A stretch of DNA of 64,000 bases from assembly GCA_034422655.1 (NCBI GenBank), contig DAOUJN010000039.1:16937-80936 (forward strand), in the 5' to 3' direction. The notes under the pieces are model-generated. The model was given only the letters and a program-made list of their open reading frames with translations. It was not told the DNA's origin and made no database searches. A program made the position numbers and the translations under genes. The first letter of the stretch is position 1. Every line of letters starts with the position of its first letter. This document shows, piece after piece, positions 4,394 to 59,531 of this stretch. This DNA comes from Dehalococcoidia bacterium (GTDB lineage Bacteria; Chloroflexota; Dehalococcoidia; Lucifugimonadales; UBA3495).

Positions 4394-4558
4394 CGGCTGC
4401 GGCCCAACAACAATCTTCCGACCGTCATGCTTGCCCGAATGCCCTTATTTTCGATACCGAATCCCTGCTCTGCGCCTTGTTCCCCTCGCCGTTGCGGATG
4501 CCGAATCAGTAAGGCTATCTGTTCCGGAACCGGCGCAACCTGACCCAGGAGAACGCCT

Positions 4559-5335
4559 GTGAATACCCAGCCAGGCATAACCGTTACCGACCTTACCGTG
4601 GAACGGGACGGCTACCGCGCCCTGTTTAACGTCAACTTTCACATAGGGCCGGGGAACCTGGTGGGGGTTGTTGGCCCCAACGGCGCCGGCAAGAGTACCC
4701 TGTTTGACGCCATTGTGGGCGTTCTCCCGCCGGCCCGGGGCAGGGTGGAACTCCAGGGCATCGGCGCGCGCCGTGGCGGCCTGGCCTACGTGCCCCAGCG
4801 CGACAACATCAACCTGCGCTTTCCCGCCACCGTCCACGACGTGGTGATGATGGGCCGCTACTGCCACGTGGGCCTTTTTCGAGGCGTGTCACGGAAGGAC
4901 CGGGCAATAGTCCAGGCCTGCCTGGAAAGGGTGGGCCTGTGGGAACGGCGCGACGCCCTGATCGAGGAGAACTCCGGCGGGCAGCGCCAGCGGGTATTCA
5001 TCGCCCGCGCCCTGGCCCAGGAAGCCGGAATCGTCCTGCTGGATGAGGCCTTCAGCGGCGTGGACGTGGGCGCCCAGGAGGGCATCATCCAGGTGCTCCA
5101 AACCCTGCGGGACGAGGGCAAGGTGGTGATGCTGGCTTTCCACGACCTTACCAACCTGGCAGGGCGCTTCGACCAGATTATCTGCATCAACCGCCACATT
5201 TGCGCCTTTGGCCCGCCCGCCGAGGCCTTCACTCCCGAGGTGCTGGAGGAGCTGTACGGTTCCCATGGCATGGTGATGGCCCACACCCACCCCGGCGGGG
5301 AGACCCACATCGCCACCCACGTGCGCAATGATTGA
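4559..5335 (+). CDS. metal (Zn/Mn-type) ABC transporter ATP-binding protein
   Basis: Walker A GPNGAGKST, signature LSGGQRQR-like (NSGGQRQR) and Walker B IVLLDEAF. GTG start after an AGGAG RBS. Confidence 0.85.
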   Translation: MNTQPGITVTDLTVERDGYRALFNVNFHIGPGNLVGVVGPNGAGKSTLFDAIVGVLPPARGRVELQGIGARRGGLAYVPQRDNINLRFPATVHDVVMMGRYCHVGLFRGVSRKDRAIVQACLERVGLWERRDALIEENSGGQRQRVFIARALAQEAGIVLLDEAFSGVDVGAQEGIIQVLQTLRDEGKVVMLAFHDLTNLAGRFDQIICINRHICAFGPPAEAFTPEVLEELYGSHGMVMAHTHPGGETHIATHVRND

Positions 5336-6170
5336 TTTAATTTTCGACCCCTTTCAGTACTCCTTCATGCTGCGGGCCCTGATCGTGTCCGCATTGGTGG
5401 GGTTCCTGCTGCCCGTGGTTGGCGCCTACATCATCACCCGGGGCCGCGCCTTCATGACCGACGCGCTGGCCCATTCCCTGGTGGCCCCCGTGGCCGTGGC
5501 GTCGCTGCTGGGCTTTACCTCCTACATAACCGCCGTCCCCGGGGGCATCGCCATCGCCATGCTGATGGGCTTCCTGAGCCGCCAGACGGGGATCAGCGAC
5601 GATACCTCCATCGGCGTGGTCTTCGCCGGCATATTTGCCCTGGGGCTTATCATTCTCTCCATCAGCGTGAACGTAAACCCGGGCCGGGCCGTCAACATCG
5701 AGGACCTGCTGCTGGGCCAGGTGCTGGCGGTGACTCAGACCGACGTCCTGATATCGTTGGTGCTTACGGTGGCGGTGGTGGCGGGCGTCTTCCTGTTCCA
5801 CCGGCACCTGGTTTACACGACCTTTGACCCCGTATCCGCCCGGGTGGCCGGGGTTAAGACCTCGCTGGTCGAGTATCTGCTGTTGGCCCTGCTGGCCGTG
5901 GTAATCGTCATTGGCCTGTCCGCCGCCGGCATCGTCCTGGTAATCGCCATGCTGGTCATTCCCTCTGCCGCCGCCTACCTCCTCGCTCGCAGGTTCACGG
6001 GAGTCATGCTCCTGGGCGCCGTGATTGGGGTGGTTTCCACCGTCATTGGGTTGTACCTTTCCTACTATGCCAACTGGCCCTCGGGCCCGTCCATGGCGAC
6101 GGTGGCGTTCCTGATTTTCGGCATCGCCACCATCCGCAAGCGGGCCTTCCCCGTCAAGTCCGACGAATAG
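5328..6170 (+). CDS. metal ABC transporter permease (ABC-3 family)
   Basis: 280-aa polytopic membrane protein. Its start overlaps the stop of the ATPase gene. Length and hydrophobicity pattern fit ZnuB/MntB-type permeases. Confidence 0.85.
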   Translation: MIDLIFDPFQYSFMLRALIVSALVGFLLPVVGAYIITRGRAFMTDALAHSLVAPVAVASLLGFTSYITAVPGGIAIAMLMGFLSRQTGISDDTSIGVVFAGIFALGLIILSISVNVNPGRAVNIEDLLLGQVLAVTQTDVLISLVLTVAVVAGVFLFHRHLVYTTFDPVSARVAGVKTSLVEYLLLALLAVVIVIGLSAAGIVLVIAMLVIPSAAAYLLARRFTGVMLLGAVIGVVSTVIGLYLSYYANWPSGPSMATVAFLIFGIATIRKRAFPVKSDE

Positions 6171-6273
6171 CCGGGCTAGTCTCCTTGCCCTGTTCAGTTA
6201 CCGCGGCCCAGGTGTTATCATTTTGTCTCTCTCCCCCGCCGGGGGCGGTATTCTGGACATTGCAGGTGCAGCT

Positions 6274-7026
6274 ATGCGATTGGAAGGCAAGGTTGCGTTT
6301 ATCAGCGGCGGCGCCCGGGGCATGGGCGCCGCCGAGGTCCGCCTGTTCAGCGCGGAAGGGGCCAGCGTTGCCTTCGGCGACGTGCTGGAAGAGGAGGGCC
6401 GGGCCCTGGAGGCTGAGCTTGCCGAAGGCGGCGGTCAGGCCCTGTTCCTGCCCCTCGACGTCACCAGCGCCGAGCAGTGGCAGGCCGCCATTGATGCCGC
6501 CGTCGCCCGGTTCGGCAAGCTGGATGTCCTGGTCAATAACGCCGGCGTCCGCGGCGCCGGCCTGGTCGAGGACATCTCCGGCGACGAATGGGACCGGGTG
6601 CTGGACATCAACGCCAAGGGCACCTTCCTGGGTACCCGGGCGGCCCTGCCGGCCCTCCGCGACAACGGAGGCGGCTCCATCGTCAACATTTCGTCCCAGC
6701 TGGGCATAGTTGGCGTGGACAACAGCGGCCCCCAGTACCAGGCCTCCAAGGGCGCGGTGCGCATCTTTACCAAGGCCACCGCCATCCAGTACGCCAGGGA
6801 AGGCATTCGCGCCAACTCCGTCCACCCCGGCCCCATCGCCACCCCCATGACCGAGGGCGGGCGCGCCGACCCCGACCGGTACCGGACCACCGTCTCCCGC
6901 ATACCCCTGGGCCGGTACGGCGAACCCGAAGACGTGGCCTACGGAGTCCTCTTCCTGGCCTCCGACGAGTCCTCCTTCATGACCGGCAGCGAACTGGTAA
7001 TAGACGGCGGCTGGACCGCCCAGTAG
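6274..7026 (+). CDS. SDR family oxidoreductase
   Basis: GKVAFISGGARGMG cofactor motif, NNAG, and YxxxK (YQASK). Start chosen at MRLEGK; the track ORF starts at 6223. Confidence 0.9.
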   Translation: MRLEGKVAFISGGARGMGAAEVRLFSAEGASVAFGDVLEEEGRALEAELAEGGGQALFLPLDVTSAEQWQAAIDAAVARFGKLDVLVNNAGVRGAGLVEDISGDEWDRVLDINAKGTFLGTRAALPALRDNGGGSIVNISSQLGIVGVDNSGPQYQASKGAVRIFTKATAIQYAREGIRANSVHPGPIATPMTEGGRADPDRYRTTVSRIPLGRYGEPEDVAYGVLFLASDESSFMTGSELVIDGGWTAQ

Positions 7027-7116
7027 GAGGGGCCGCAACCCCCGCTACCCCACCCCGTTTTTGTGTTAGGATAGGCGGAAGGCGCCCCATTCCACCCATT
7101 ACCGGAGGCTTGTGCC

Positions 7117-7458
7117 ATGCAGATAGTACGGGTTTACGCTGGCGACGACGGCGAGTCCCACTTCGAGGACCTGACCGTTGAGCAGTTTGCCGAAATAGTT
7201 AATCGATTCGGGTCCGGCGACATTACCCTGAACGCCCGTCCCTCCCCCAGCTTCTCCGACTACCACACCGCGCCGCGCCGCCAGTACGTGATGAACCTGG
7301 CCGGCATTGCCGAGTTTGAGACCGCCGACGGGACCGTCCGCCGCCTGAACCCCGGCGACGTGCTGATTGCCGAGGACGTTACAGGCCACGGCCACATCGC
7401 CCGCAGCATCGGCGACGAGTTCCGGGTATCCCTGGCCGTCCCCCTGGCCGAGGGGTAG
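7117..7458 (+). CDS. cupin-like small protein
   Basis: 113 aa with a beta-rich pattern and a GDVLIAEDVTGHGH segment resembling a cupin barrel. GGAGG RBS. Confidence 0.55.
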   Translation: MQIVRVYAGDDGESHFEDLTVEQFAEIVNRFGSGDITLNARPSPSFSDYHTAPRRQYVMNLAGIAEFETADGTVRRLNPGDVLIAEDVTGHGHIARSIGDEFRVSLAVPLAEG

Positions 7459-7467
7459 GGGCAAGCC

Positions 7468-7740
7468 ATGGCGGAAATGGACAACGACGAATTTATACGG
7501 CGCATCCGCGAGAAAATCGAACGCCTGACCGAGGGTGCCGTCGATCTGCGGGTGGACGTGGAGGACGTGAACCGGCTGCAGGTTGACCTGGGCCAGGGAG
7601 TCCCCCGGGTAACCCTGGGCGCCAACATCTACCGCTATTCCGGGTTTGCCCGCATGAGCGTGGAATACGCCGTGGCCTCCATCCGGGAGCGGCGGGACCT
7701 GGAACCCCTGGAGTTCCATCTGCTGCTGGCCCGCAACTGA
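7468..7740 (+). CDS. hypothetical protein
   Basis: 90-aa ORF co-oriented with and 9 nt downstream of the cupin gene. Codon bias matches the neighbours. No family recognised. Confidence 0.45.
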   Translation: MAEMDNDEFIRRIREKIERLTEGAVDLRVDVEDVNRLQVDLGQGVPRVTLGANIYRYSGFARMSVEYAVASIRERRDLEPLEFHLLLARN

Positions 7741-16538: not shown

Positions 16539-18956
16539 ATGGACAATAGGGAACTCTGCTGGAAACTTCTTCGTGCGGATAGCGAGGAAGAAGTTCAAAA
16601 GACCTTGAGGGACGTCGGATATTGGAATGATTCATTTGTCTGGCGTCCCTATGGGGACCTAGAGAACAATTACGGCACGATAGGGAACCAGCAAGGGGAA
16701 GCGGTTGCGGCCCTGGTTGAAAAAATTGTCAATTCCATAGATGCCAGGCTGATGAATGAATGCTTGGCTCGTGGTGAATCCCCTGAGTCTTCCGACGCTC
16801 CCCAATCAATCCACGAGGCCGTTTACCGATACTTCGGAGAAGGTGGTACCTTTGATCCGGATAGAAGTGGCCGTCTTTCCAACTGGCCCGACAGGAAGCT
16901 CAACGATGAAGGCGACTACATAACCATCACTGCAACGGGCCGCCGTCCTGAGTCCCGGAGAAGTACCGCTGCCCACCCGAGCTTGACCATTGCCGATCGT
17001 GGTGAGGGACAAACTCCCGACGATTTTCCTAACACTTTCTTGTCGCTCCATAGGAGCAACAAGGTTAGAATCAACTTTGTTCAAGGTAAATTCAACATGG
17101 GTGCGACCGGCGCCCTCCCCTATTGCAGCGAGCGCAACAATTTCCAACTGATTGTCTCTAAAAGAAACTCTGCCATTCTGAAGGGCGACGAATCTTGCCG
17201 GGCTTCAGAGTGGGGCTTTACCATGGTTCGACGAAAAGATCCCTCGTCAGACTCCCGCAGCTCTGTTTTCGAGTACTTGGCGCCCGTAGGGGCCACGGAT
17301 TCTAAGCGTGGGCAGGTACTCTCCTTTCCCGCAAACGACTTCCCTATTTTCCCTGACCGGCAGGGTCAACCTTATTCCCGAGGGTCTTCTTTCGGTACCT
17401 TGATCAAGCTGTATGAGTACCGCTGGCAGGGAACTTCTTCCAGCATCATTATGCCTGGGGATGGTAATGGCCTGATTCGCCGCATTGAACTGGCATTGGC
17501 TGAGCCTGCGCTTCCGGTGAAGCTGTACGAATGTCGAAACTATCAAGGTAATGAAGTGTTTAGGAGCGTCAGGGGGATACTCACTGACTTGGAGAGAAAC
17601 AGAGATGACATAGAAGAAGGCTTTCCGCAAAGCATGGATTTGTCAGTGGCTCAACAGAGGCTCAAAGCTACAATATATGCCTTCAAGCCGGGCGCATACC
17701 GTAGCCACAGAACGAACAGGCATGGTGTTTTATTCCTCTATAACGGCCAAATGCACGCTTCGTACACAACCAGGTTCTTCCAAAGACAAAGCGTAAGGAA
17801 GAGCTACCTTGCCAACGACTTGCTGGTTTTGGTGGACTGCAGCAACATCCAGCGGCGAGAATTTGAAGACTTGTTCATGAATAGCCGGGACCGTTTGAGA
17901 AGCGATTCCAAGCTCTCTGTGGAGATGGAGAAGAAATTGGAAGACTTTCTGCTCCACGACGAAACGCTTCGATCTCTGGAAAAACAGAGACATGATGCTG
18001 CAATTGTGGGCAAGGAGGATGAGGCCAGTAGAGAAGAACTACTAAAGGAAATTTTGGCTAGCAATCCTGAAATTTCTAGGTATCTCCTGGAAGGCGCTCT
18101 GCTCACTAGGGTTGGAAGAGGACCCCGCAATAATCACAAAGGCCAATTTGAGGGGAGGCAATTCCCCAGTTTCTTCGAGCCCAACCGCCTGGAATGGAAT
18201 GTTGGACTCGGTAAGAAAGCTCAATTGCAGTTCCAGACCGACGCCGAAAATAGCTATTTTACTCGCAGCGTCTCGCCAGGAAGCTGGTCAATAACAGCTT
18301 CTGACTCAGGCGACTGGACCAACTTCTGGGATCGTACAGGGCCCAAAGATGGAACAGCGAGATTCTATTGGGATACATCTGCCTTGCCGCCTGGATTATT
18401 GAAACCGGGAGCCAGCTTCGAATTTACTTTAGCAGTACGTGACGAATCTAGAGTTGATCCCCTTCAGAGTTCAATAAAGGTAAATATAACCGAACCAATT
18501 GACGGCAACGGCGGGGGCCAAAGAAATAAAACGGAAAAGGGAACGGAAGCGGTAGCTTCTCCAAACATAATTCCTGTTTACGAAGCCGAGTGGTTAACAC
18601 ATCCTTTAGGTTCGTTCAGCAGCGAAACAGCGTGTCGTATATCCACAGACCCTTCTGCCACTGTGGAACGAGAGGCCTGGGACTTCTATGTAAACGTGGA
18701 CAATGAACATATCCATCATTATTCGCGGACCAAGAATTGCCCCTTGGAGGCGGCTAGGAACGCATTCACAACCGCCGTGGTATTCATGGCTCTGGCACTG
18801 ATTCGTGGTGCGTCGCTTGGGGCATCATCAGACGGAGAAAGCGTGAATCATTCAGATGATTTGCCCGGCTATGTGTCTCAGGTTACCCAGTTTGTTGGTC
18901 CCGTCCTTTTGCCGGTTATTGACAACCTCGGTCTGCTAGGTACAGACTATCAATAG
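16539..18956 (+). CDS. GHKL/Bergerat-fold ATPase domain protein, 805 aa (MORC/HATPase_c_3-like N-terminus, unknown C-terminal two thirds)
   Basis: N-box EKIVNSIDA (aa 61-69), G1 DRGEG (aa 153-157) and G2 GKFNMGATG (aa 183-191). It is a single long ORF in a clearly AT-richer segment. Confidence 0.75.
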   Translation: MDNRELCWKLLRADSEEEVQKTLRDVGYWNDSFVWRPYGDLENNYGTIGNQQGEAVAALVEKIVNSIDARLMNECLARGESPESSDAPQSIHEAVYRYFGEGGTFDPDRSGRLSNWPDRKLNDEGDYITITATGRRPESRRSTAAHPSLTIADRGEGQTPDDFPNTFLSLHRSNKVRINFVQGKFNMGATGALPYCSERNNFQLIVSKRNSAILKGDESCRASEWGFTMVRRKDPSSDSRSSVFEYLAPVGATDSKRGQVLSFPANDFPIFPDRQGQPYSRGSSFGTLIKLYEYRWQGTSSSIIMPGDGNGLIRRIELALAEPALPVKLYECRNYQGNEVFRSVRGILTDLERNRDDIEEGFPQSMDLSVAQQRLKATIYAFKPGAYRSHRTNRHGVLFLYNGQMHASYTTRFFQRQSVRKSYLANDLLVLVDCSNIQRREFEDLFMNSRDRLRSDSKLSVEMEKKLEDFLLHDETLRSLEKQRHDAAIVGKEDEASREELLKEILASNPEISRYLLEGALLTRVGRGPRNNHKGQFEGRQFPSFFEPNRLEWNVGLGKKAQLQFQTDAENSYFTRSVSPGSWSITASDSGDWTNFWDRTGPKDGTARFYWDTSALPPGLLKPGASFEFTLAVRDESRVDPLQSSIKVNITEPIDGNGGGQRNKTEKGTEAVASPNIIPVYEAEWLTHPLGSFSSETACRISTDPSATVEREAWDFYVNVDNEHIHHYSRTKNCPLEAARNAFTTAVVFMALALIRGASLGASSDGESVNHSDDLPGYVSQVTQFVGPVLLPVIDNLGLLGTDYQ

Positions 18957-52446: not shown

Positions 52447-54380
<1,934 letters not shown>

Positions 54381-54410
54381 TCCAGATAGGTAGGTTGTTA
54401 AGTTGGGGGT

Positions 54411-54439
54411 ATTTTAGGGGCGGGGGTGGGGGATGTCAA
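54411..54439 (-). promoter_or_regulatory. candidate thiC promoter (TTGACA-N17-TAAAAT)
   Basis: The reverse complement reads TTGACA tcccccacccccgcccc TAAAAT. It ends about 30 nt upstream of the riboswitch. Confidence 0.5.
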
Positions 54440-54538
54440 TATTTTGGGCTGCAGTTCGATATGGGTAGGCAAACCGTGAGGAAACTCCGTAGGAGACGGC
54501 ATACTAGGAAGTTAATGGGAATAAGGGAAAACACCGAG

Positions 54539-55237
54539 TCAACCGAATAGGCCATTCAAAAAGGGTATTATGACATCTAACGCTCCGATGGCAGCTATTA
54601 TTCCAATGGCTATCGTGAGTACCATCAATGCTATTACTATTTTGTGGTAATCGAGTGATTGGCTATGTCGAAACGGATCGGACAGCGTCATATATTCTCG
54701 GACTGCAGACCCGTTCACCCTTTCATCAGATAAATTTGAAAACTCCTCCCAGTATAAGTCTGGTGCTGAGCGCAAGCTTTCATAGACTGATAGGAGTTCG
54801 GTGACTGCCAACTGTGTGTGAAAGACGTCTCTAAGCCGATTCAGTCTCCTTACTTTGACGAATGCACTCTCTGTTCTTTGCATTTCCACAAAGAAGCTTA
54901 GGTAAGATACTGAAAAGGCTAGCGTAGAAGTTGTGTGCAGTTGATCAAAACCAAAAGGCCATTTGCCAGTTATAAGGACTGTCGAAAAAAGAGCTCCTAA
55001 GATGGCCAACCCAGTGAATAGGACTATTACCGCTGCAGACACTGCGAACCAAACGTTCGAAACGGGTTGAAAAATTTGCTTTTCGACTCCCCACTTCCTG
55101 TATGTCGCACGGCTTCTATGAAAGACTAGGCGCACGATTAGCTGATATAAATGCTGACCGAAAAACCAATTATAGGCAAACATGAGCAGAAAGAGAAAAA
55201 CGACTATTGACCATTCAACGGAGCCAACATCCCTCAC
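54539..55237 (-). CDS. multi-pass membrane protein, function unknown
   Basis: 232 aa with a GTG start 7 nt after GGAGG. Hydrophobic segments at about aa 9-27, 61-89, 103-118 and 199-229, with a soluble helical insert at aa 120-198. This is the most AT-rich segment of the window. Confidence 0.7.
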   Translation of the reverse strand: MRDVGSVEWSIVVFLFLLMFAYNWFFGQHLYQLIVRLVFHRSRATYRKWGVEKQIFQPVSNVWFAVSAAVIVLFTGLAILGALFSTVLITGKWPFGFDQLHTTSTLAFSVSYLSFFVEMQRTESAFVKVRRLNRLRDVFHTQLAVTELLSVYESLRSAPDLYWEEFSNLSDERVNGSAVREYMTLSDPFRHSQSLDYHKIVIALMVLTIAIGIIAAIGALDVIIPFLNGLFG

Positions 55238-55304
55238 TTCCTTTCCTCCAGTTTTTGATTCTTGGATGGCTAAGTTAAACTATTCATCCAACCGATGTTG
55301 CTCT

Positions 55305-56804
55305 TCACCCCTGCCATATCCCCATTTCTCCTAATCTTTGCCTCAAATACGGCATATCCCTGTCGCCCTTAATTGCATTACATGTGTGGCACATCAGTTG
55401 CAGGTTCCCAACCGAGTCCAAACCGCCTCGGGAGCGGGGGGTAATGTGGTCAACGGTAAGTACGTGGAGGGGCAGTTCATACTGGCAGCCTGCACAGCGA
55501 CGTTGCTGGTTGGAATAGAGGAATTGCCTCTCAGATTGAGGACTGACTGGACTCAGCAGGTTCAAATCGGTGCGGGCCGGCGGCGAGGTCTCCGACCTCA
55601 TGGCTTGGCTCCAATCCTGCCAGGCCCTTCCGTTCCCATCATCTAGCGGTATCTGCAACTCACGTTTTGCGCGATTTCGCAGGGTTTCCACGGCCTGAGG
55701 CAAGATATCTATTCCTATCCATTCTCGCCCCAATTTTTCAGCAGCAATGCAGGCGGTGGCACAACCGCAGAAGGGGTCCAGTACCAGTTCGTTTTCGACT
55801 GAAGATGCACTAATTATTCTTTCTACCAGGGCTAACGGCTTCTGAGTTTTCCAACCTGTCCGTTCTCTAGATTGGGCCGATATTGGCCTGATATCAGTCC
55901 ACAGATTTGATGGAACTTGTCCCGGGTTGCTTGCCAGGTATCGTTTCAGCCGAGGCATGCCTTCCTTCTCGGGATAGTGGATCAAACCAGCTTTATCCAG
56001 AGCGTCCAATCTTTCAATCGGGCTTTCGATGAGGCGGTAGCCGGGGATGAAGTTTTCTTCAATCCATCTCGCATAGTTGCTGATATAAGGAATGGCCCAG
56101 TGCCGACCCGTTCTGTTTGGGTCATATCCCCTCCAAACGTGACTGCTTTGCCCTGTCCTCAGTTCGGCGGCAGTCAGGTCCCCGATTTGATATGCGCCCC
56201 GCTCGTCCTCATGCCGATAGAATCTGGCAACATAGTCAGAGTCCAGAGGCACACGTATGTTTCCAGGATTTATCCTAGCCCGGAGGCTGTAGAAAAGAAT
56301 GTTGTCGCACACATTTCCAAAACTGCGTGAATCGTTGTGAGCCGACGTCCGTTGCCAAGTGATTTGGCAGCGATAGGCCTGTTCGCCAAATAGCGCATCC
56401 ATGATGGCCTTCAAGTAATGGGATGCGTGAGGGTCGCAATGCAAGTAGATGCTGCCGGAGTTCTTTAGTATCCGGTGCATTTCAACGAGCCGGACGCTCA
56501 TGAAAGTGAGGTATCCGGCCATACTTTCGCCGTGGGCCAGCTTAGCGCCGTTAATCAGGTAAAACAGGGCGGGACGGCGATACTCAACCTCCTCGATCCA
56601 CTCCTGCTTCATATCATCCAGGGTCCAAACATCATCGAACTCGGCGCCGCGGGCTTCGCTGTCCAGGGGGGCGGCGTAGCTCTGGTTGGAGTTAAAGGGC
56701 GGGTCCAAGTAAATCAAGTCCACGCACTCGGAGTTGATGCCCCGGAGAATGTCGAGGTTATCGCCGGTAAATATGGTGCGGCTGGGTACGTTGCAGGCGG
56801 CCAT
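55305..56804 (-). CDS. beta-class N6/N4 DNA methyltransferase fused to a C-terminal HNH nuclease domain
   Basis: Positions use the numbering of the 510-aa track ORF. Motif IV is DPPF (aa 45-48), followed by TQKPLALVERII and motif I VLDPFCGCATA (aa 352-362). The HNH module is CAGC...DHITPRSRGG...NLQLMCHTCNAIKG (aa 448-491). Start set at ATG 56804; a TTG at 56837 is the alternative. Confidence 0.85.
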   Translation of the reverse strand: MAACNVPSRTIFTGDNLDILRGINSECVDLIYLDPPFNSNQSYAAPLDSEARGAEFDDVWTLDDMKQEWIEEVEYRRPALFYLINGAKLAHGESMAGYLTFMSVRLVEMHRILKNSGSIYLHCDPHASHYLKAIMDALFGEQAYRCQITWQRTSAHNDSRSFGNVCDNILFYSLRARINPGNIRVPLDSDYVARFYRHEDERGAYQIGDLTAAELRTGQSSHVWRGYDPNRTGRHWAIPYISNYARWIEENFIPGYRLIESPIERLDALDKAGLIHYPEKEGMPRLKRYLASNPGQVPSNLWTDIRPISAQSRERTGWKTQKPLALVERIISASSVENELVLDPFCGCATACIAAEKLGREWIGIDILPQAVETLRNRAKRELQIPLDDGNGRAWQDWSQAMRSETSPPARTDLNLLSPVSPQSERQFLYSNQQRRCAGCQYELPLHVLTVDHITPRSRGGLDSVGNLQLMCHTCNAIKGDRDMPYLRQRLGEMGIWQG

Positions 56805-56944
56805 TGGCAACTTCACCTGGGAGATTAAGGATGGCAAGGAAATGGTAGGGTTGACCCTGTTCGCCTGTCAATCGGAAAGTGTCAGCAGGGGCAGGGCGAC
56901 GTGTTGGATGGGTGGGTCCGAGTGCCCCGGGGCTGGGCGGCAAC

Positions 56945-58444
56945 CTAATCGTCCGCCGCGGCGGGACCATCAATAAGCCCTACGCTGGAGTCCAGGACCT
57001 CAAAGTTGAACTGCTGGGTGGGCGCGACGGCGCGGCGGGAGAGGATTATGACGGCGGTGAGGGCCGTGGAAATTACCAGCGCGGAGGCGAAGGACCAGAA
57101 CATCTGGCCGCCGGCGGGGGCGGTGAAAGCCCAGGGGGACAGGAGGTCGGGCCGGGGGTAAAAGAGGGCGCCGATTACGATGCCAACACCGCCGGCCACC
57201 ATGACTCCCCAGCCGGGCATGCGGCGGGAGTATAGGCCCACCAGCACGGGAATCGCCAGGGCTGCGCCCAGCAGGTCGGCGATGAGGAAGACGTAGAGAA
57301 CGCTGTGGCCCTGGGAGGCTACGATGATGGCGGGGATGGCAACGACTACCGTAATGGCCCGGGCCAGCAGCATGAGGGAGCCACGCTGGAGCCCGAAGCC
57401 GGCCAGGTCGGCGGCGACGCCGCTGGCGAGGCCGTTCATCAGGGTGTCCAGGGTGCTCATGGCCAGCATCAGGGCGCAAATGAGCATCAAGAAGTGCATC
57501 CACAGGGGGAAGACGTCGCTGGCCAGGGCGAACAGGGCGGCGGCCACTTTCGGGTAGCCGAAGGGTTCCACGGACTCGTTGCCCACGGCGGCAATGCCAG
57601 CCAGGCCCATGAGGAAGGTGAGGGGGATGGCTATGGCCACGGCGCCCCACAGGCTGCGGTTGAGGACCCGCTGGTCCTGCACCGTGTAAACGCGCTGCCA
57701 CATGCCGGGGTGGAAGGCGTTGGAGGTGACGATGCCGATTATCAGGACGATGGCGAAGAAGTAACTGCCCGGGGTGCTGGCTGACAGGAGACCGGCATTA
57801 CTGGCCTCAGACCAGGCGTCGGTGTTGCCCAGGAGGACGGCAGCAACGACCACCAGCAGGAGGAGGACGGGAATCAGGACCCAGAACTGGATGCGGTCGG
57901 TGTAGATGGAGGTGCGAAGCCCTCCGTAAGCGGTGTAAGCGATGACCACGATGCCAACGGCCAGGGCGGTGGCCCAGAGGGGCGAATCGGTCAGGTTGCT
58001 GACCGCAGCGGTGATGGCGGTGAGTTCGGCGGTGATGAAGATGCCCATGATGAAGATGATGGACAGGAAGATGGTTACGAAGGGCGCCACGCCGAAGCGG
58101 TGCCGGATGTATTCGGTTATGGAGTGTCCGTTGGGCATGACCTGTCGGATGCGGGGGCCGACGAACATGTACATGACGGGGATGCCGGCCATGCCGATGG
58201 CATAACCCACCAGGGCTATGATGCCGAAGTTGGCGCCGGTTTCGCCGGGGCTTAGAAGCACCCAGGTGCCGAACATGGAGGCCACCAGGGTGGCGATGCC
58301 CACGTTAACGGGCGCGTGGTTGCGGGAAACGGTGTAGTCCTCGACGCTCTGGCCGCGCCGTCGCCAGGAGTAGGTAATGCCCAGCACCAGGAAGGCGGCG
58401 CACACGATTATCAGGGTAATGATGCCAAGGTTGGTATCCAGCAT
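56945..58444 (-). CDS. sodium:solute symporter family transporter
   Basis: Polytopic 499-aa protein from MLDTNLGIITLII. The track ORF extends to 58849 through non-coding-looking sequence. Confidence 0.85.
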   Translation of the reverse strand: MLDTNLGIITLIIVCAAFLVLGITYSWRRRGQSVEDYTVSRNHAPVNVGIATLVASMFGTWVLLSPGETGANFGIIALVGYAIGMAGIPVMYMFVGPRIRQVMPNGHSITEYIRHRFGVAPFVTIFLSIIFIMGIFITAELTAITAAVSNLTDSPLWATALAVGIVVIAYTAYGGLRTSIYTDRIQFWVLIPVLLLLVVVAAVLLGNTDAWSEASNAGLLSASTPGSYFFAIVLIIGIVTSNAFHPGMWQRVYTVQDQRVLNRSLWGAVAIAIPLTFLMGLAGIAAVGNESVEPFGYPKVAAALFALASDVFPLWMHFLMLICALMLAMSTLDTLMNGLASGVAADLAGFGLQRGSLMLLARAITVVVAIPAIIVASQGHSVLYVFLIADLLGAALAIPVLVGLYSRRMPGWGVMVAGGVGIVIGALFYPRPDLLSPWAFTAPAGGQMFWSFASALVISTALTAVIILSRRAVAPTQQFNFEVLDSSVGLIDGPAAADD

Positions 58445-58736
58445 GTCCTGTCTCCCGGTTTTCCTGAATGCTACAACAGGGAAGTATAGAGGATACAGAA
58501 CACCGGCGGGTTTGTGAACCGCGGGGGGTAAGCCATTGCCATCGAAATGGTAGGCTCGTGGCAGCCACCGGGTGTTGTAGGCCATGTTCAAAACGAATAG
58601 CGGTTGGCCTTTTGCCTGCCGGTTGCATGGGAAGAAAGGGGAGACTAGGGGAAGGGGTTTAGTGACGTGGTGATAGTGAAGTTCGCTCAAATTTCCGTTA
58701 GAATCAGGGGCAGGAAGCAGATGTGGGGTATGAGAA

Positions 58737-59054
58737 ATGGCGGAGAAGATAGAGTACATATTTCCCAAGGAAGACGGCGTTGCGCTGGTGGACGGGTTGC
58801 CCAGGATTGTGGACCATGACGCCTGGGATAAAAGGATGGCCGAGTTCAAGAGGGACAGGCAATTCTACGGCGCTCACAAGAAGGAGCTTCTGGAGAAATA
58901 CCCCTATCATTGGGTGGCGATTTTCCGGGAAGAAGTGGTGGCGGTTGACCGCGACCGGTGCGCTATGGTCCGGAAACTTGACGAAATGGGGATACACAAG
59001 ACCCATGTTGTTATACATCTCTTGGATCCTGACCCTCCCACGCTCATCCTCTGA
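58737..59054 (+). CDS. small protein partnered with an aspartic protease (antitoxin-like position)
   Basis: 105 aa. The core LLEKYPYHWVAIFREEVVAVDRDRCAMVRKLDEMG resembles that of the 47873 protein. It ends 6 nt before the protease gene. Confidence 0.6.
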   Translation: MAEKIEYIFPKEDGVALVDGLPRIVDHDAWDKRMAEFKRDRQFYGAHKKELLEKYPYHWVAIFREEVVAVDRDRCAMVRKLDEMGIHKTHVVIHLLDPDPPTLIL

Positions 59055-59060
59055 AAGCCA

Positions 59061-59531
59061 ATGCCAATACAGGGATTCTTCGAGTCTGAGCACAATGACC
59101 CGCCGGCACCCTTTCTGGAAGGAATGATTTACTTTCCCAGGCTGGGAACGGGAGGGCTCCTTTCTTTCCTAATTGACACCGGCTCCGATCGCACTTTCTT
59201 ACCAAGGGACCCCGCGGAGGAATTGGGAATAGACTACCAAGAATTGGAAGGAAGAAGGCTTTCGGGTTTGCGCGGGGTGAGTGGGCCGGCCGGATACTAT
59301 CGGGAAGAAGCCTTGGTGTTATTCAATGACGATTCGGGGAAAGATATCATTTGCCGGCTGGTAGTGGGGCTTCAGGCCACTCGCGGAGGTGGTTCCGGCT
59401 GGGATGCACCTCCCCTGCTGGGGAGGGATTTCCTGAATTTGTGCGATTTGACGGTCAGCTTTGCGCAGGGCGCGGTGGAATTAGAGCCCATCAGAGTGGA
59501 TGGGAATTTTGTTGTAGATCCGATGGAGTGA
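59061..59531 (+). CDS. retropepsin-like (clan AA) aspartic protease
   Basis: LIDTGSD catalytic motif and LLGRDFLNLCDLTVSF. Second copy of the module at 47482-48169. Confidence 0.7.
   Translation: MPIQGFFESEHNDPPAPFLEGMIYFPRLGTGGLLSFLIDTGSDRTFLPRDPAEELGIDYQELEGRRLSGLRGVSGPAGYYREEALVLFNDDSGKDIICRLVVGLQATRGGGSGWDAPPLLGRDFLNLCDLTVSFAQGAVELEPIRVDGNFVVDPME

Follow-up and report, generated by a model that had tools for sequence, protein, structure and literature searches.

The window analysed here is a stretch of 64,000 nucleotides from contig DAOUJN010000039.1 of a Dehalococcoidia bacterium. On its minus strand, between a symporter gene and thiC, it carries a gene encoding a beta-class DNA methyltransferase fused to an HNH nuclease domain at its C-terminus (55305..56804), here called the fusion, followed by a gene for a membrane protein of 232 residues, here called C7 (54539..55237). 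Other loci and protein entries are designated by L- and P-numbers, respectively. A preliminary description, made from the letters alone, had taken the two genes for one inserted island, a self/non-self module coupled to a membrane effector. Our data favor a different picture, in which the fusion would be a self-contained enzyme and C7 a separate accessory.

Open reading frame (ORF) calling confirmed that the two genes are co-oriented and 67 nt apart. Called mechanically, the fusion ORF extends to a TTG (55305..56837, minus strand, 510 residues). The ATG at 56804, which gives a protein of 499 residues, is the likelier start, since the homologs in the database are all called at about 499 residues and an AGGTGA resembling a ribosome-binding site lies about 11 nt upstream of it; inspection of the sequence ahead of the TTG at 56837 revealed no such element. 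The GTG start of C7 is preceded by a strong GGAGG at 8-12 nt. What the preliminary description had read from the sequence was thus confirmed, apart from small corrections.

The pair sits where it had been placed before, as confirmed by Pfam, Rfam and promoter scans. On one side, the ORF of a symporter (Pfam SSF, minus strand) ends at 56945. On the other side follow a promoter-like site, TTGACA-17-TAAAAT (54439-54411, minus strand, 11/12 in the promoter scan), the thiamine pyrophosphate (TPP) riboswitch of thiC (54272..54385, minus strand, Rfam RF00059, 64.8 bits) and thiC itself (52447..54207, Pfam scan). This promoter and riboswitch (54272..54439) constitute the downstream boundary and lie outside the element. 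Measured over 300 nt at a time, the GC content was 0.43-0.45 in C7, 0.49-0.59 in the fusion and 0.62-0.68 in the flanks. Over whole genes it amounted to 0.44 for C7, 0.54 for the fusion and about 0.65 for thiC, the symporter and the gene of a GFO/IDH/MocA oxidoreductase; the corresponding values at third codon positions (GC3) were 0.44, 0.61 and 0.86-0.88. The segment had been characterized as AT-rich, with roughly 40-50% GC in sampled lines. Both genes are AT-rich, but this range fits only C7, the fusion having approximately 54%.

Domain structure of the fusion

The methyltransferase domain (55683..56723, minus strand) matched Pfam PF01555 N6_N4_Mtase with E = 4.8e-37 (128.5 bits, cut-off 26.7). 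Motif IV, DPPF, comprises residues 34-37 (56694..56705, minus strand) and precedes motif I, VLDPFCGCATA (55752..55784, minus strand), in which DPFCGCATA corresponds to residues 343-351. The order of DPPF, recognition region and S-adenosylmethionine (AdoMet)-binding motif I is that of beta-class enzymes, and the initial assignment to the N6_N4 methyltransferases of this class stands. A linker of about 52 residues (55497..55652, minus strand), rich in Pro, Ser and Gln and poorly conserved, leads to the HNH domain, which had already been recognized as complete and whose coordinates we refined to 55359..55496 (minus strand). It exhibits the pattern CAGC...DH...GN...CHTCN..K and was matched by both HNH (PF01844, E = 8e-10, 39.2 bits, gathering threshold 21.4) and HNH_5 (PF14279, E = 1.4e-09, 38.2 bits, gathering threshold 27.5). 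The catalytic His/Asn set and two CxxC pairs of zinc ligands are present. Among 56 homologs, C437, C440, H453, C475 and N476 were invariant, and D452, N467, C472 and H473 were kept in at least 90%.

The AlphaFold2 (AF2) model of the fusion was weak, with a predicted local distance difference test (pLDDT) score of 63.5 and values below 50 in the linker, and was used for domain-level matches only. Its methylase part matched the folds of EcoP15I Mod, M.BceJIV, RsrI and MboIIA, its tail those of the Gme HNH nicking endonuclease, Cas9 HNH domains and McrA. By sequence, the closest solved relatives of the methylase were plain beta-class methylases and Type III Mod subunits only; sequence and fold together yielded M.BceJIV, M.MboIIA, CcrM, RsrI and EcoP15I Mod. 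The PADLOC models MTase_II and MTase_III matched the fusion as well.

Across 117 homologs, motifs IV and I were invariant, the zinc ligands and the DH, N and N of the HNH were essentially so, and mean column identity reached 0.88-0.95 in the catalytic parts, with a mean of about 0.9 for residues 1-125 and for the motif I region, residues 326-375. Residues of about 126-325 (55830..56429, minus strand), in contrast, attained only 0.55-0.73. We presume this hypervariable middle to be the target-recognition domain. Since the catalytic parts are constant and this region is variable, both activities are apparently under purifying selection while the DNA-reading part diversifies. Constant catalysis combined with variable recognition is the pattern expected for specificity-diversifying enzymes.

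Distribution of the fusion and exchange of its nuclease

A protein database search returned more than 120 clusters with 60-86% identity to the window protein, bearing no name more informative than 'site-specific DNA-methyltransferase (adenine-specific)'. Members are about 500 residues long apart from a few truncated entries (e.g. P0083, 376 residues), and PF01555 and PF01844 occur together in all clusters except P0083. Counting one genome per species, the census comprised 79 loci, most of them in Dehalococcoidia and Chloroflexota metagenome-assembled genomes (MAGs), with distant copies in gammaproteobacterial, alphaproteobacterial, Rhodothermales and Cytophagales MAGs. A match in Poribacteria (L044) covers the methylase only and carries an Mrr_cat domain. 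Judging only by the names of co-listed taxa (Candidatus Poribacteria, Poriferihabitaceae and Porisulfidus), the family may be at home in communities of the sponge type. In nearly every locus the GC content of the fusion lay 3-8 points under that of the flanks.

Several genomes hold two or three fusion copies. The copies are dispersed in OY762444.1, OY282456.1, OZ241751.1 and OZ251456.1, and full-length paralogs stand in tandem at 4440-5963 and 5989-7488 of L010 and at 8-1507 and 1520-3034 of L016. At least seven loci contain split, apparently frameshifted copies, among them L002, L034, L038 and L041. The preliminary description had conceded that a common methylase with a degenerate HNH would speak against it; the fusion is indeed common, but its HNH is not degenerate.

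No relative of the fusion was found in a scan of the IMG/VR viral contigs. Phage records matched the methylase part only, covering at most 77% of the fusion with the HNH outside. In the plasmid collection, no record covered at least 80% of a query made up of motif I, linker and HNH, so that the 17 long-coverage plasmid matches, which were not individually inspected, should be without the linker-HNH tail. A prophage or plasmid origin of the fusion was rejected, given the lack of matches in those collections and loci that are free of phage genes.

Sister methylases, 41-47% identical over residues of about 8-380, carry an Mrr_cat domain of the PD-(D/E)XK type instead of linker and HNH. They occur in Dehalococcoidia (L047, L049, L060), Acidobacteria (L048, L053) and Poribacteria (L044), with the match at about 6000-7650 in each of these loci. 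The exchange of the nuclease module on one methylase scaffold is our strongest comparative argument that the C-terminal domain would serve as a restriction arm. Long C-terminal extensions without a Pfam match were seen in L054, L072, L075 and L079.

Neighboring genes were surveyed by a Pfam scan of 125 ORFs flanking 44 fusion loci, and the ORFs of the loci were also clustered. No Pfam family occurred more than four times. Most neighbors were housekeeping enzymes and transporters; the 125 ORFs included neither a Res helicase nor a specificity subunit nor a recurrent stand-alone endonuclease, and the sole restriction-like family was Uma2, a putative restriction endonuclease (3/125). For the window, the ORF and Pfam survey agreed with the earlier statement: the genes directly adjoining the pair include neither an integrase nor a transposase and, of R-M components, no restriction endonuclease, Res helicase or specificity subunit. 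A ResIII/helicase gene of the Type III kind was found neither in the flanks of the window nor among the recurrent neighbors. The independence from a partner gene that is known from some Type IIC/IIG enzymes is reflected here in the absence of a recurrent neighbor, which speaks for the lack of a partner and not for an enzyme that functions.

A separate observation concerned tandem arrays of two to five Uma2-family genes (PF05685) beside an AAA_3/AAA_5-like ATPase of about 500 residues, 1-3 kb downstream of many fusions (L005-L009, L012, L013, L029, L001). L001 additionally combines a DUF4276 gene with one of the AAA_15/AAA_21 type, and a MazE-like gene is close by.

Comparison of the thiC loci

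Five related genomes have the fusion at the same thiC locus (L081, L083, L037, L018 and L038), and none of the five has C7 there. In these loci, luciferase-like and hydrolase genes are succeeded by the fusion, a variable slot, thiC and the GFO/IDH/MocA oxidoreductase gene. DNA homology to all five breaks off exactly at 55305-55308, the stop codon of the fusion, and is regained at 54441/54442 (54395 for L038), that is, at or just inside the thiC promoter. Because homology breaks at both ends, only the 863 nt from the fusion stop codon to the thiC promoter (54442..55304), holding C7 as their sole gene, are specific to the window. The same slot measures about 0.3 kb and contains no gene in L038, and is filled with 1.5-1.6 kb unrelated to the window in L037 and L018. 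In L081 and L083 it extends to 2.7-2.8 kb of likewise unrelated sequence, with HicB, a hydrolase and a DUF5678/Asp-protease-like pair among its contents. What had been proposed as a two-gene island inserted at the thiC leader is therefore reduced to this slot. A recent insertion of fusion and C7 as a pair was rejected as well, the fusion being already present at the locus in the five relatives.

On its 5' side the fusion has a leader of 83 nt (56805..56887, minus strand), which is conserved in the syntenic loci and contains a promoter-like TTGACA-18-TACCAT (56871-56842, minus strand). Homology to L081, L037, L018 and L038 begins at 56884-56887, whatever lies further upstream, and gene plus leader (55305..56887) form the conserved fusion unit. 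In the window, the luciferase-like gene, elsewhere the immediate neighbor of the fusion, is set apart from it by a 3.9-kb block with the symporter and genes of the hydrolase, Asp-protease-like and DUF5678-like types. With a variable slot at the 3' end and this block on the opposite side, both sides of the fusion are rearrangement-prone. No flanking direct or inverted repeats or target duplications marking an insertion were found. In the five syntenic loci the flanking proteins were 87-93% identical to those of the window, the fusion only 63-86%. This divergence is incongruent with the flanks: it is L038 whose thiC comes closest to that of the window, but its fusion, a frameshifted copy, is the most divergent.

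The DUF5678-like gene and the retropepsin-like Asp_protease_2 gene recur as a pair in variable slots beside the fusions of several genomes. In the window they occupy 58737..59054 and 59061..59531 on the plus strand; the same pair was located at 10073-10992 of L081, 8782-9597 of L083, where it adjoins HicB, 7905-8528 of L018, 7934-8419 of L037 and 1020-1421 of L001. It looks like a mobile two-gene module, possibly of a toxin-antitoxin-like nature.

The membrane protein C7 and its linkage to the fusion

C7 had been described as a protein of 232 residues with about four transmembrane segments and a soluble insert of 75 residues. Its AF2 model (pLDDT 80) is all-helical and confirms four long hydrophobic helices, but the soluble helical insert comprises only about 50 residues. 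That the protein fits no family was upheld: the window protein had no match in Pfam, NCBIfam, PADLOC or PHROG, 47 members had no shared Pfam or PADLOC family, and Foldseek searches of PDB and BFVD with the model returned nothing at E < 0.1, the noise consisting mostly of BAR domains and ABC-transporter helices. SLATT/2TM proteins, which had been suggested for comparison, displayed no similarity in Pfam and PADLOC profiles, and SLATT entries scored E >= 1.6 in Foldseek with template modelling (TM) scores of 0.13-0.15. An exhaustive profile search brought up 106 representative clusters, of which 90 reached E < 1e-10; RKWGVE and ELLSxYExLxxAPxxFWEEY are conserved in the family. No relative of C7 turned up when JGI metagenome contigs and IMG/VR were scanned. 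The genes are always strongly AT-shifted, with GC contents of 0.44-0.50 compared with 0.59-0.71 in their hosts. Two relatives, P0157 (431 residues) and P0231 (383 residues), have in-frame N-terminal fragments that, judged by eye, are transposase-like, and P0231 ends in what by eye is a tyrosine-recombinase-like tail; C7 genes thus seem to be interrupted by mobile elements in some genomes.

C7 was found directly 3' of the fusion in six loci, namely the window, L019, L001, L008 (two copies), L086 and L013 (a fragment). These linked pairs span at least four genomic contexts, and C7 is always on the 3' side. The two genes are co-directional in the window and in L019 and convergent in L001, L008, L086 and L013, so that no operon is possible for four of the six pairs. 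Of 60 loci with a full-length fusion, only about 5 have C7 beside it, and a hidden Markov model (HMM) of the C7 family detected no further, cryptic copies in any of the loci retrieved. The membrane gene is thus not a conserved neighbor of the fusion in the genomes searched, a point that the preliminary description had raised. The closest fusion orthologs (86%, 84%, 82% and 80% identity) have no C7, three of them at the very same thiC locus, and the fusions that are linked to C7 belong to three separate lineages, each with closer relatives without it. There are also C7 genes without an adjacent fusion. In L088 C7 adjoins selB, and L085 has the AAA-C7-ruvX-alaS locus of L001 and L008 with the fusion absent and no remnant of it. 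In L084 (2796-9973) the C7 homolog lies between a Hachiman system (HamA and DEAD-box HamB) and a convergent HNH_2 gene of 307 residues, a region that looks like a defence island.

The association between C7 and the fusion is real, non-random and far above chance. Seven C7 contexts came from searches that did not start from the fusion, and in four of these C7 adjoins a fusion on its 3' side, while chance adjacency would be below 1% per gene by our own estimate, which assumes few fusion copies and about 3,500 genes per genome. Variable orientation, frequent absence and independent occurrence nevertheless argue against an obligate or operonic partnership; conserved co-occurrence and co-orientation, as expected of an operonic two-gene system, were not found. 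In our reading, C7 and the fusion are both mobile accessory genes, gathering in shared slots that are prone to recombination. They may still be loosely tied in function, acting in trans.

Other features of the window

The symporter ORF comprises 634 residues, of which only 172-556 match SSF. Its first 135-170 residues or so (58340..58849, minus strand) fall outside the match and have a GC content of 0.52-0.54; the real start is probably further downstream than that of the ORF. In L018 a second TPP-riboswitch-like stretch (534-634), 82% identical to the thiC riboswitch of the window, lies upstream of the symporter homolog (752-2203), for which reason the symporter may transport thiamine or a thiamine precursor. 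The Rfam scan found no riboswitch upstream of the symporter in the window itself. A second low-GC island was noticed at 16539..18956 on the plus strand (GC 0.50, window mean 0.61), flanked on one side by the gene of a Rieske oxygenase and on the other by that of a further SSF symporter. It encodes a protein of 805 residues that had no match in Pfam or PADLOC.

Discussion

We propose, with a probability that we put at roughly 55%, that the fusion is a self-contained single-chain restriction-modification (R-M) enzyme, Type IIC-like in its logic, that behaves as a mobile, selfish one-gene unit and carries C7 as cargo. The N-terminal beta-class methylase would read a short DNA motif by means of its built-in hypervariable recognition region and would modify this motif on host DNA, probably to N6-methyladenine given the DPPF motif. 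The HNH domain, flexibly tethered at the C-terminus, would nick or cut DNA where this motif is unmethylated, or close by. With a single reader for both activities, specificity might shift without loss of self-protection, and this may explain the expansion to many paralogs in uncultured Dehalococcoidia. The gene would move and be lost as one unit with its own promoter, in line with its clean absence from L085 and presence in L001 and L008. C7 would be a separate, horizontally acquired accessory in the recombination-prone 3' slot and not a required partner; in the window it is probably read through from the fusion promoter.

Several points weigh against this proposal. The nearest relatives of the methylase in the reference collections are phage and plasmid methylases free of any nuclease (37-40% identity), and the fusion may have a role other than restriction. 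A lone tethered HNH has one active site and may only nick DNA unless the protein dimerizes, and the weak AF2 model does not allow the domain arrangement to be read reliably. Characterized Type IIC/IIG enzymes all use gamma- or alpha-class methylases and PD-(D/E)XK nucleases (PMC4081073), which makes the Type IIC analogy one of architecture and not of homology. Finally, the proportion of independently sampled C7 genes that stand beside a fusion is not pure chance.

If the two genes formed one defence system, the fusion would discriminate self from non-self and C7 would act as a membrane-disrupting abortive-infection effector, or as a membrane anchor or regulator. The recurrent 3' position in several genomic contexts, the adjacency above chance and the C7 gene next to Hachiman and HNH_2 in L084 would fit such a system, as would the 67-nt gap in the window, where the scan detected neither promoter nor terminator and co-transcription is plausible. 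The methylase-nuclease module coupled to a membrane effector, as originally suggested, is nevertheless hard to reconcile with fusion orthologs that do without C7 even at the thiC locus, with the small share of fusion loci that have it, with its retention at the L001/L008 locus in L085, with predominantly convergent pairs scattered over separate lineages and with a protein that resembles neither a PADLOC effector nor SLATT. We consider it very improbable. Similarly doubtful in our view is a variant in which the 3' flank of the fusion is a cargo-capture site, made by its own nuclease or by recombination around a selfish R-M unit, and C7 is a dedicated accessory, either a modulator or an executor of defence output. 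As C7 would then act in trans, either orientation would be tolerated; the two genes would make up a defence pair of a new kind, if loosely linked, and the single-chain HNH R-M enzymes of the fusion family would form a class of their own that is also new.

Two other explanations leave C7 aside and concern the enzyme itself. In a selfish element of the homing type, the HNH would copy its own gene into fusion-less alleles, the methylase would protect the carrier chromosome and any defence would be incidental. A single gene with its own promoter, cleanly present or absent between syntenic genomes, occurring at many different intergenic sites between housekeeping genes and in multiple copies in several genomes, could well behave in this way. 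Its GC3 is far under that of the host, its divergence from the flanks suggests allele replacement, and rearrangements and the variable slot lie immediately beside it; the HNH resembles phage HNH, endonuclease VII and nicking enzymes. R-M units are also documented as mobile and linked to local rearrangements (PMC2853133). Yet flanking repeats and target duplications were not found, neither the viral contigs nor the phage records contain a member of the family, the pairing of a hypervariable recognition region and an unchanging nuclease is better understood as diversification of restriction specificity than as homing to a single site, and equivalent sisters with Mrr_cat point to restriction-type nucleases. 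Homing as the principal function is rather unlikely, although it overlaps with the self-contained R-M enzyme, R-M genes being themselves selfish, and the difference is mainly one of emphasis. We think it very unlikely that the fusion is an orphan, regulatory or anti-restriction methyltransferase, whose HNH would be only a DNA-binding or zinc-finger module or serve repair and not restriction, with C7 unrelated. The nuclease-free relatives of its methylase part, the matching PADLOC model of orphan methyltransferases, sub-threshold NCBIfam matches to YhdJ-type (PRK11524) and CcrM adenine methyltransferases and the stability of the gene at the thiC locus in six related genomes would suit such a role. 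The family-wide conservation of the HNH His, Asn, Asn and both CxxC pairs would be unexpected, however, for a purely structural module, a catalytic-type Mrr_cat replaces the HNH in sisters, and paralogs with divergent recognition regions together with frequent pseudogenes are atypical of regulatory orphans.

Should the fusion be a working R-M enzyme, it would extend the range of combined Type IIC architectures, described so far with PD-(D/E)XK nucleases, by a beta-class methylase with a tethered HNH. Its family would then constitute a large natural library of recognition variants that could be mined for new cutting or nicking specificities. The massive amplification of a single-gene R-M unit in uncultured Dehalococcoidia would also bear on how symbiont-type genomes police foreign DNA. 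The orphan C7 family and the sharp slot at the fusion stop codon are smaller open questions and not a demonstrated new system.

Comparison with known systems

As stated in the preliminary description, the fusion fits no canonical Type I-IV layout, and our literature search on methylase-HNH fusions found no paper describing a beta-class methylase-linker-HNH architecture. The logic of combined R-M enzymes and the individual parts are known; this architecture, with its Mrr-bearing sisters, and the scale of its expansion appear to be uncharacterized.

With Type III Mod subunits (EcoP15I, Mbo45V) and with M.BceJIV, M.MboIIA, M.RsrI and CcrM, the best matches of the methylase, the fusion shares the motif order IV, recognition, I. 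Unlike the fusion, Type III Mod and beta-class Type II methylases carry no fused nuclease, and no Res gene adjoins any fusion. The HNH domain shares the beta-beta-alpha-metal fold, the Cys4 zinc site and the DH...N...N set with the Gme HNH nicking enzyme, McrA and Cas9 HNH. In those proteins the HNH is free-standing or attached to modification-reading or RNA-guided modules, whereas in the window it is attached to a methyltransferase. KpnI and MnlI are further HNH restriction endonucleases. C7, like SLATT/2TM abortive-infection effectors, is a small helical membrane protein near defence genes, but differs from them in its four long hydrophobic helices, its conserved acidic/aromatic soluble motif and the absence of an HMM match.

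As in Type IIC/IIG enzymes such as MmeI, BpuSI and Eco57I, nuclease and methyltransferase reside in one polypeptide, where a single recognition module would serve both; among the Type IIC/IIG enzymes there are some that need no partner gene, and their families readily diversify specificity (PMC4081073). Combined Type IIC enzymes mostly have an N-terminal PD-D/EXK nuclease followed by a gamma-class methylase (PMC4081073). The fusion, in contrast, has a beta-class methylase with internal recognition region, a linker and a C-terminal HNH, and there is no sequence homology past the generic methylase fold. Since the typical architecture is not found, the fusion would be Type IIC-like at most in its way of working and is no member of the MmeI/BpuSI family. 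A known exception among the combined enzymes is BtgZI, which has an N-terminal alpha-class methylase and a C-terminal PD-(D/Q)XK nuclease in one chain (PMC4081073). Through this order of methylase and nuclease within a single chain, BtgZI offers a precedent for the proposed R-M enzyme, although it combines other classes of methylase and nuclease than the beta-class and HNH modules of the fusion. In the type of nuclease, the Mrr_cat-bearing sisters are closer to BtgZI than the fusion is.

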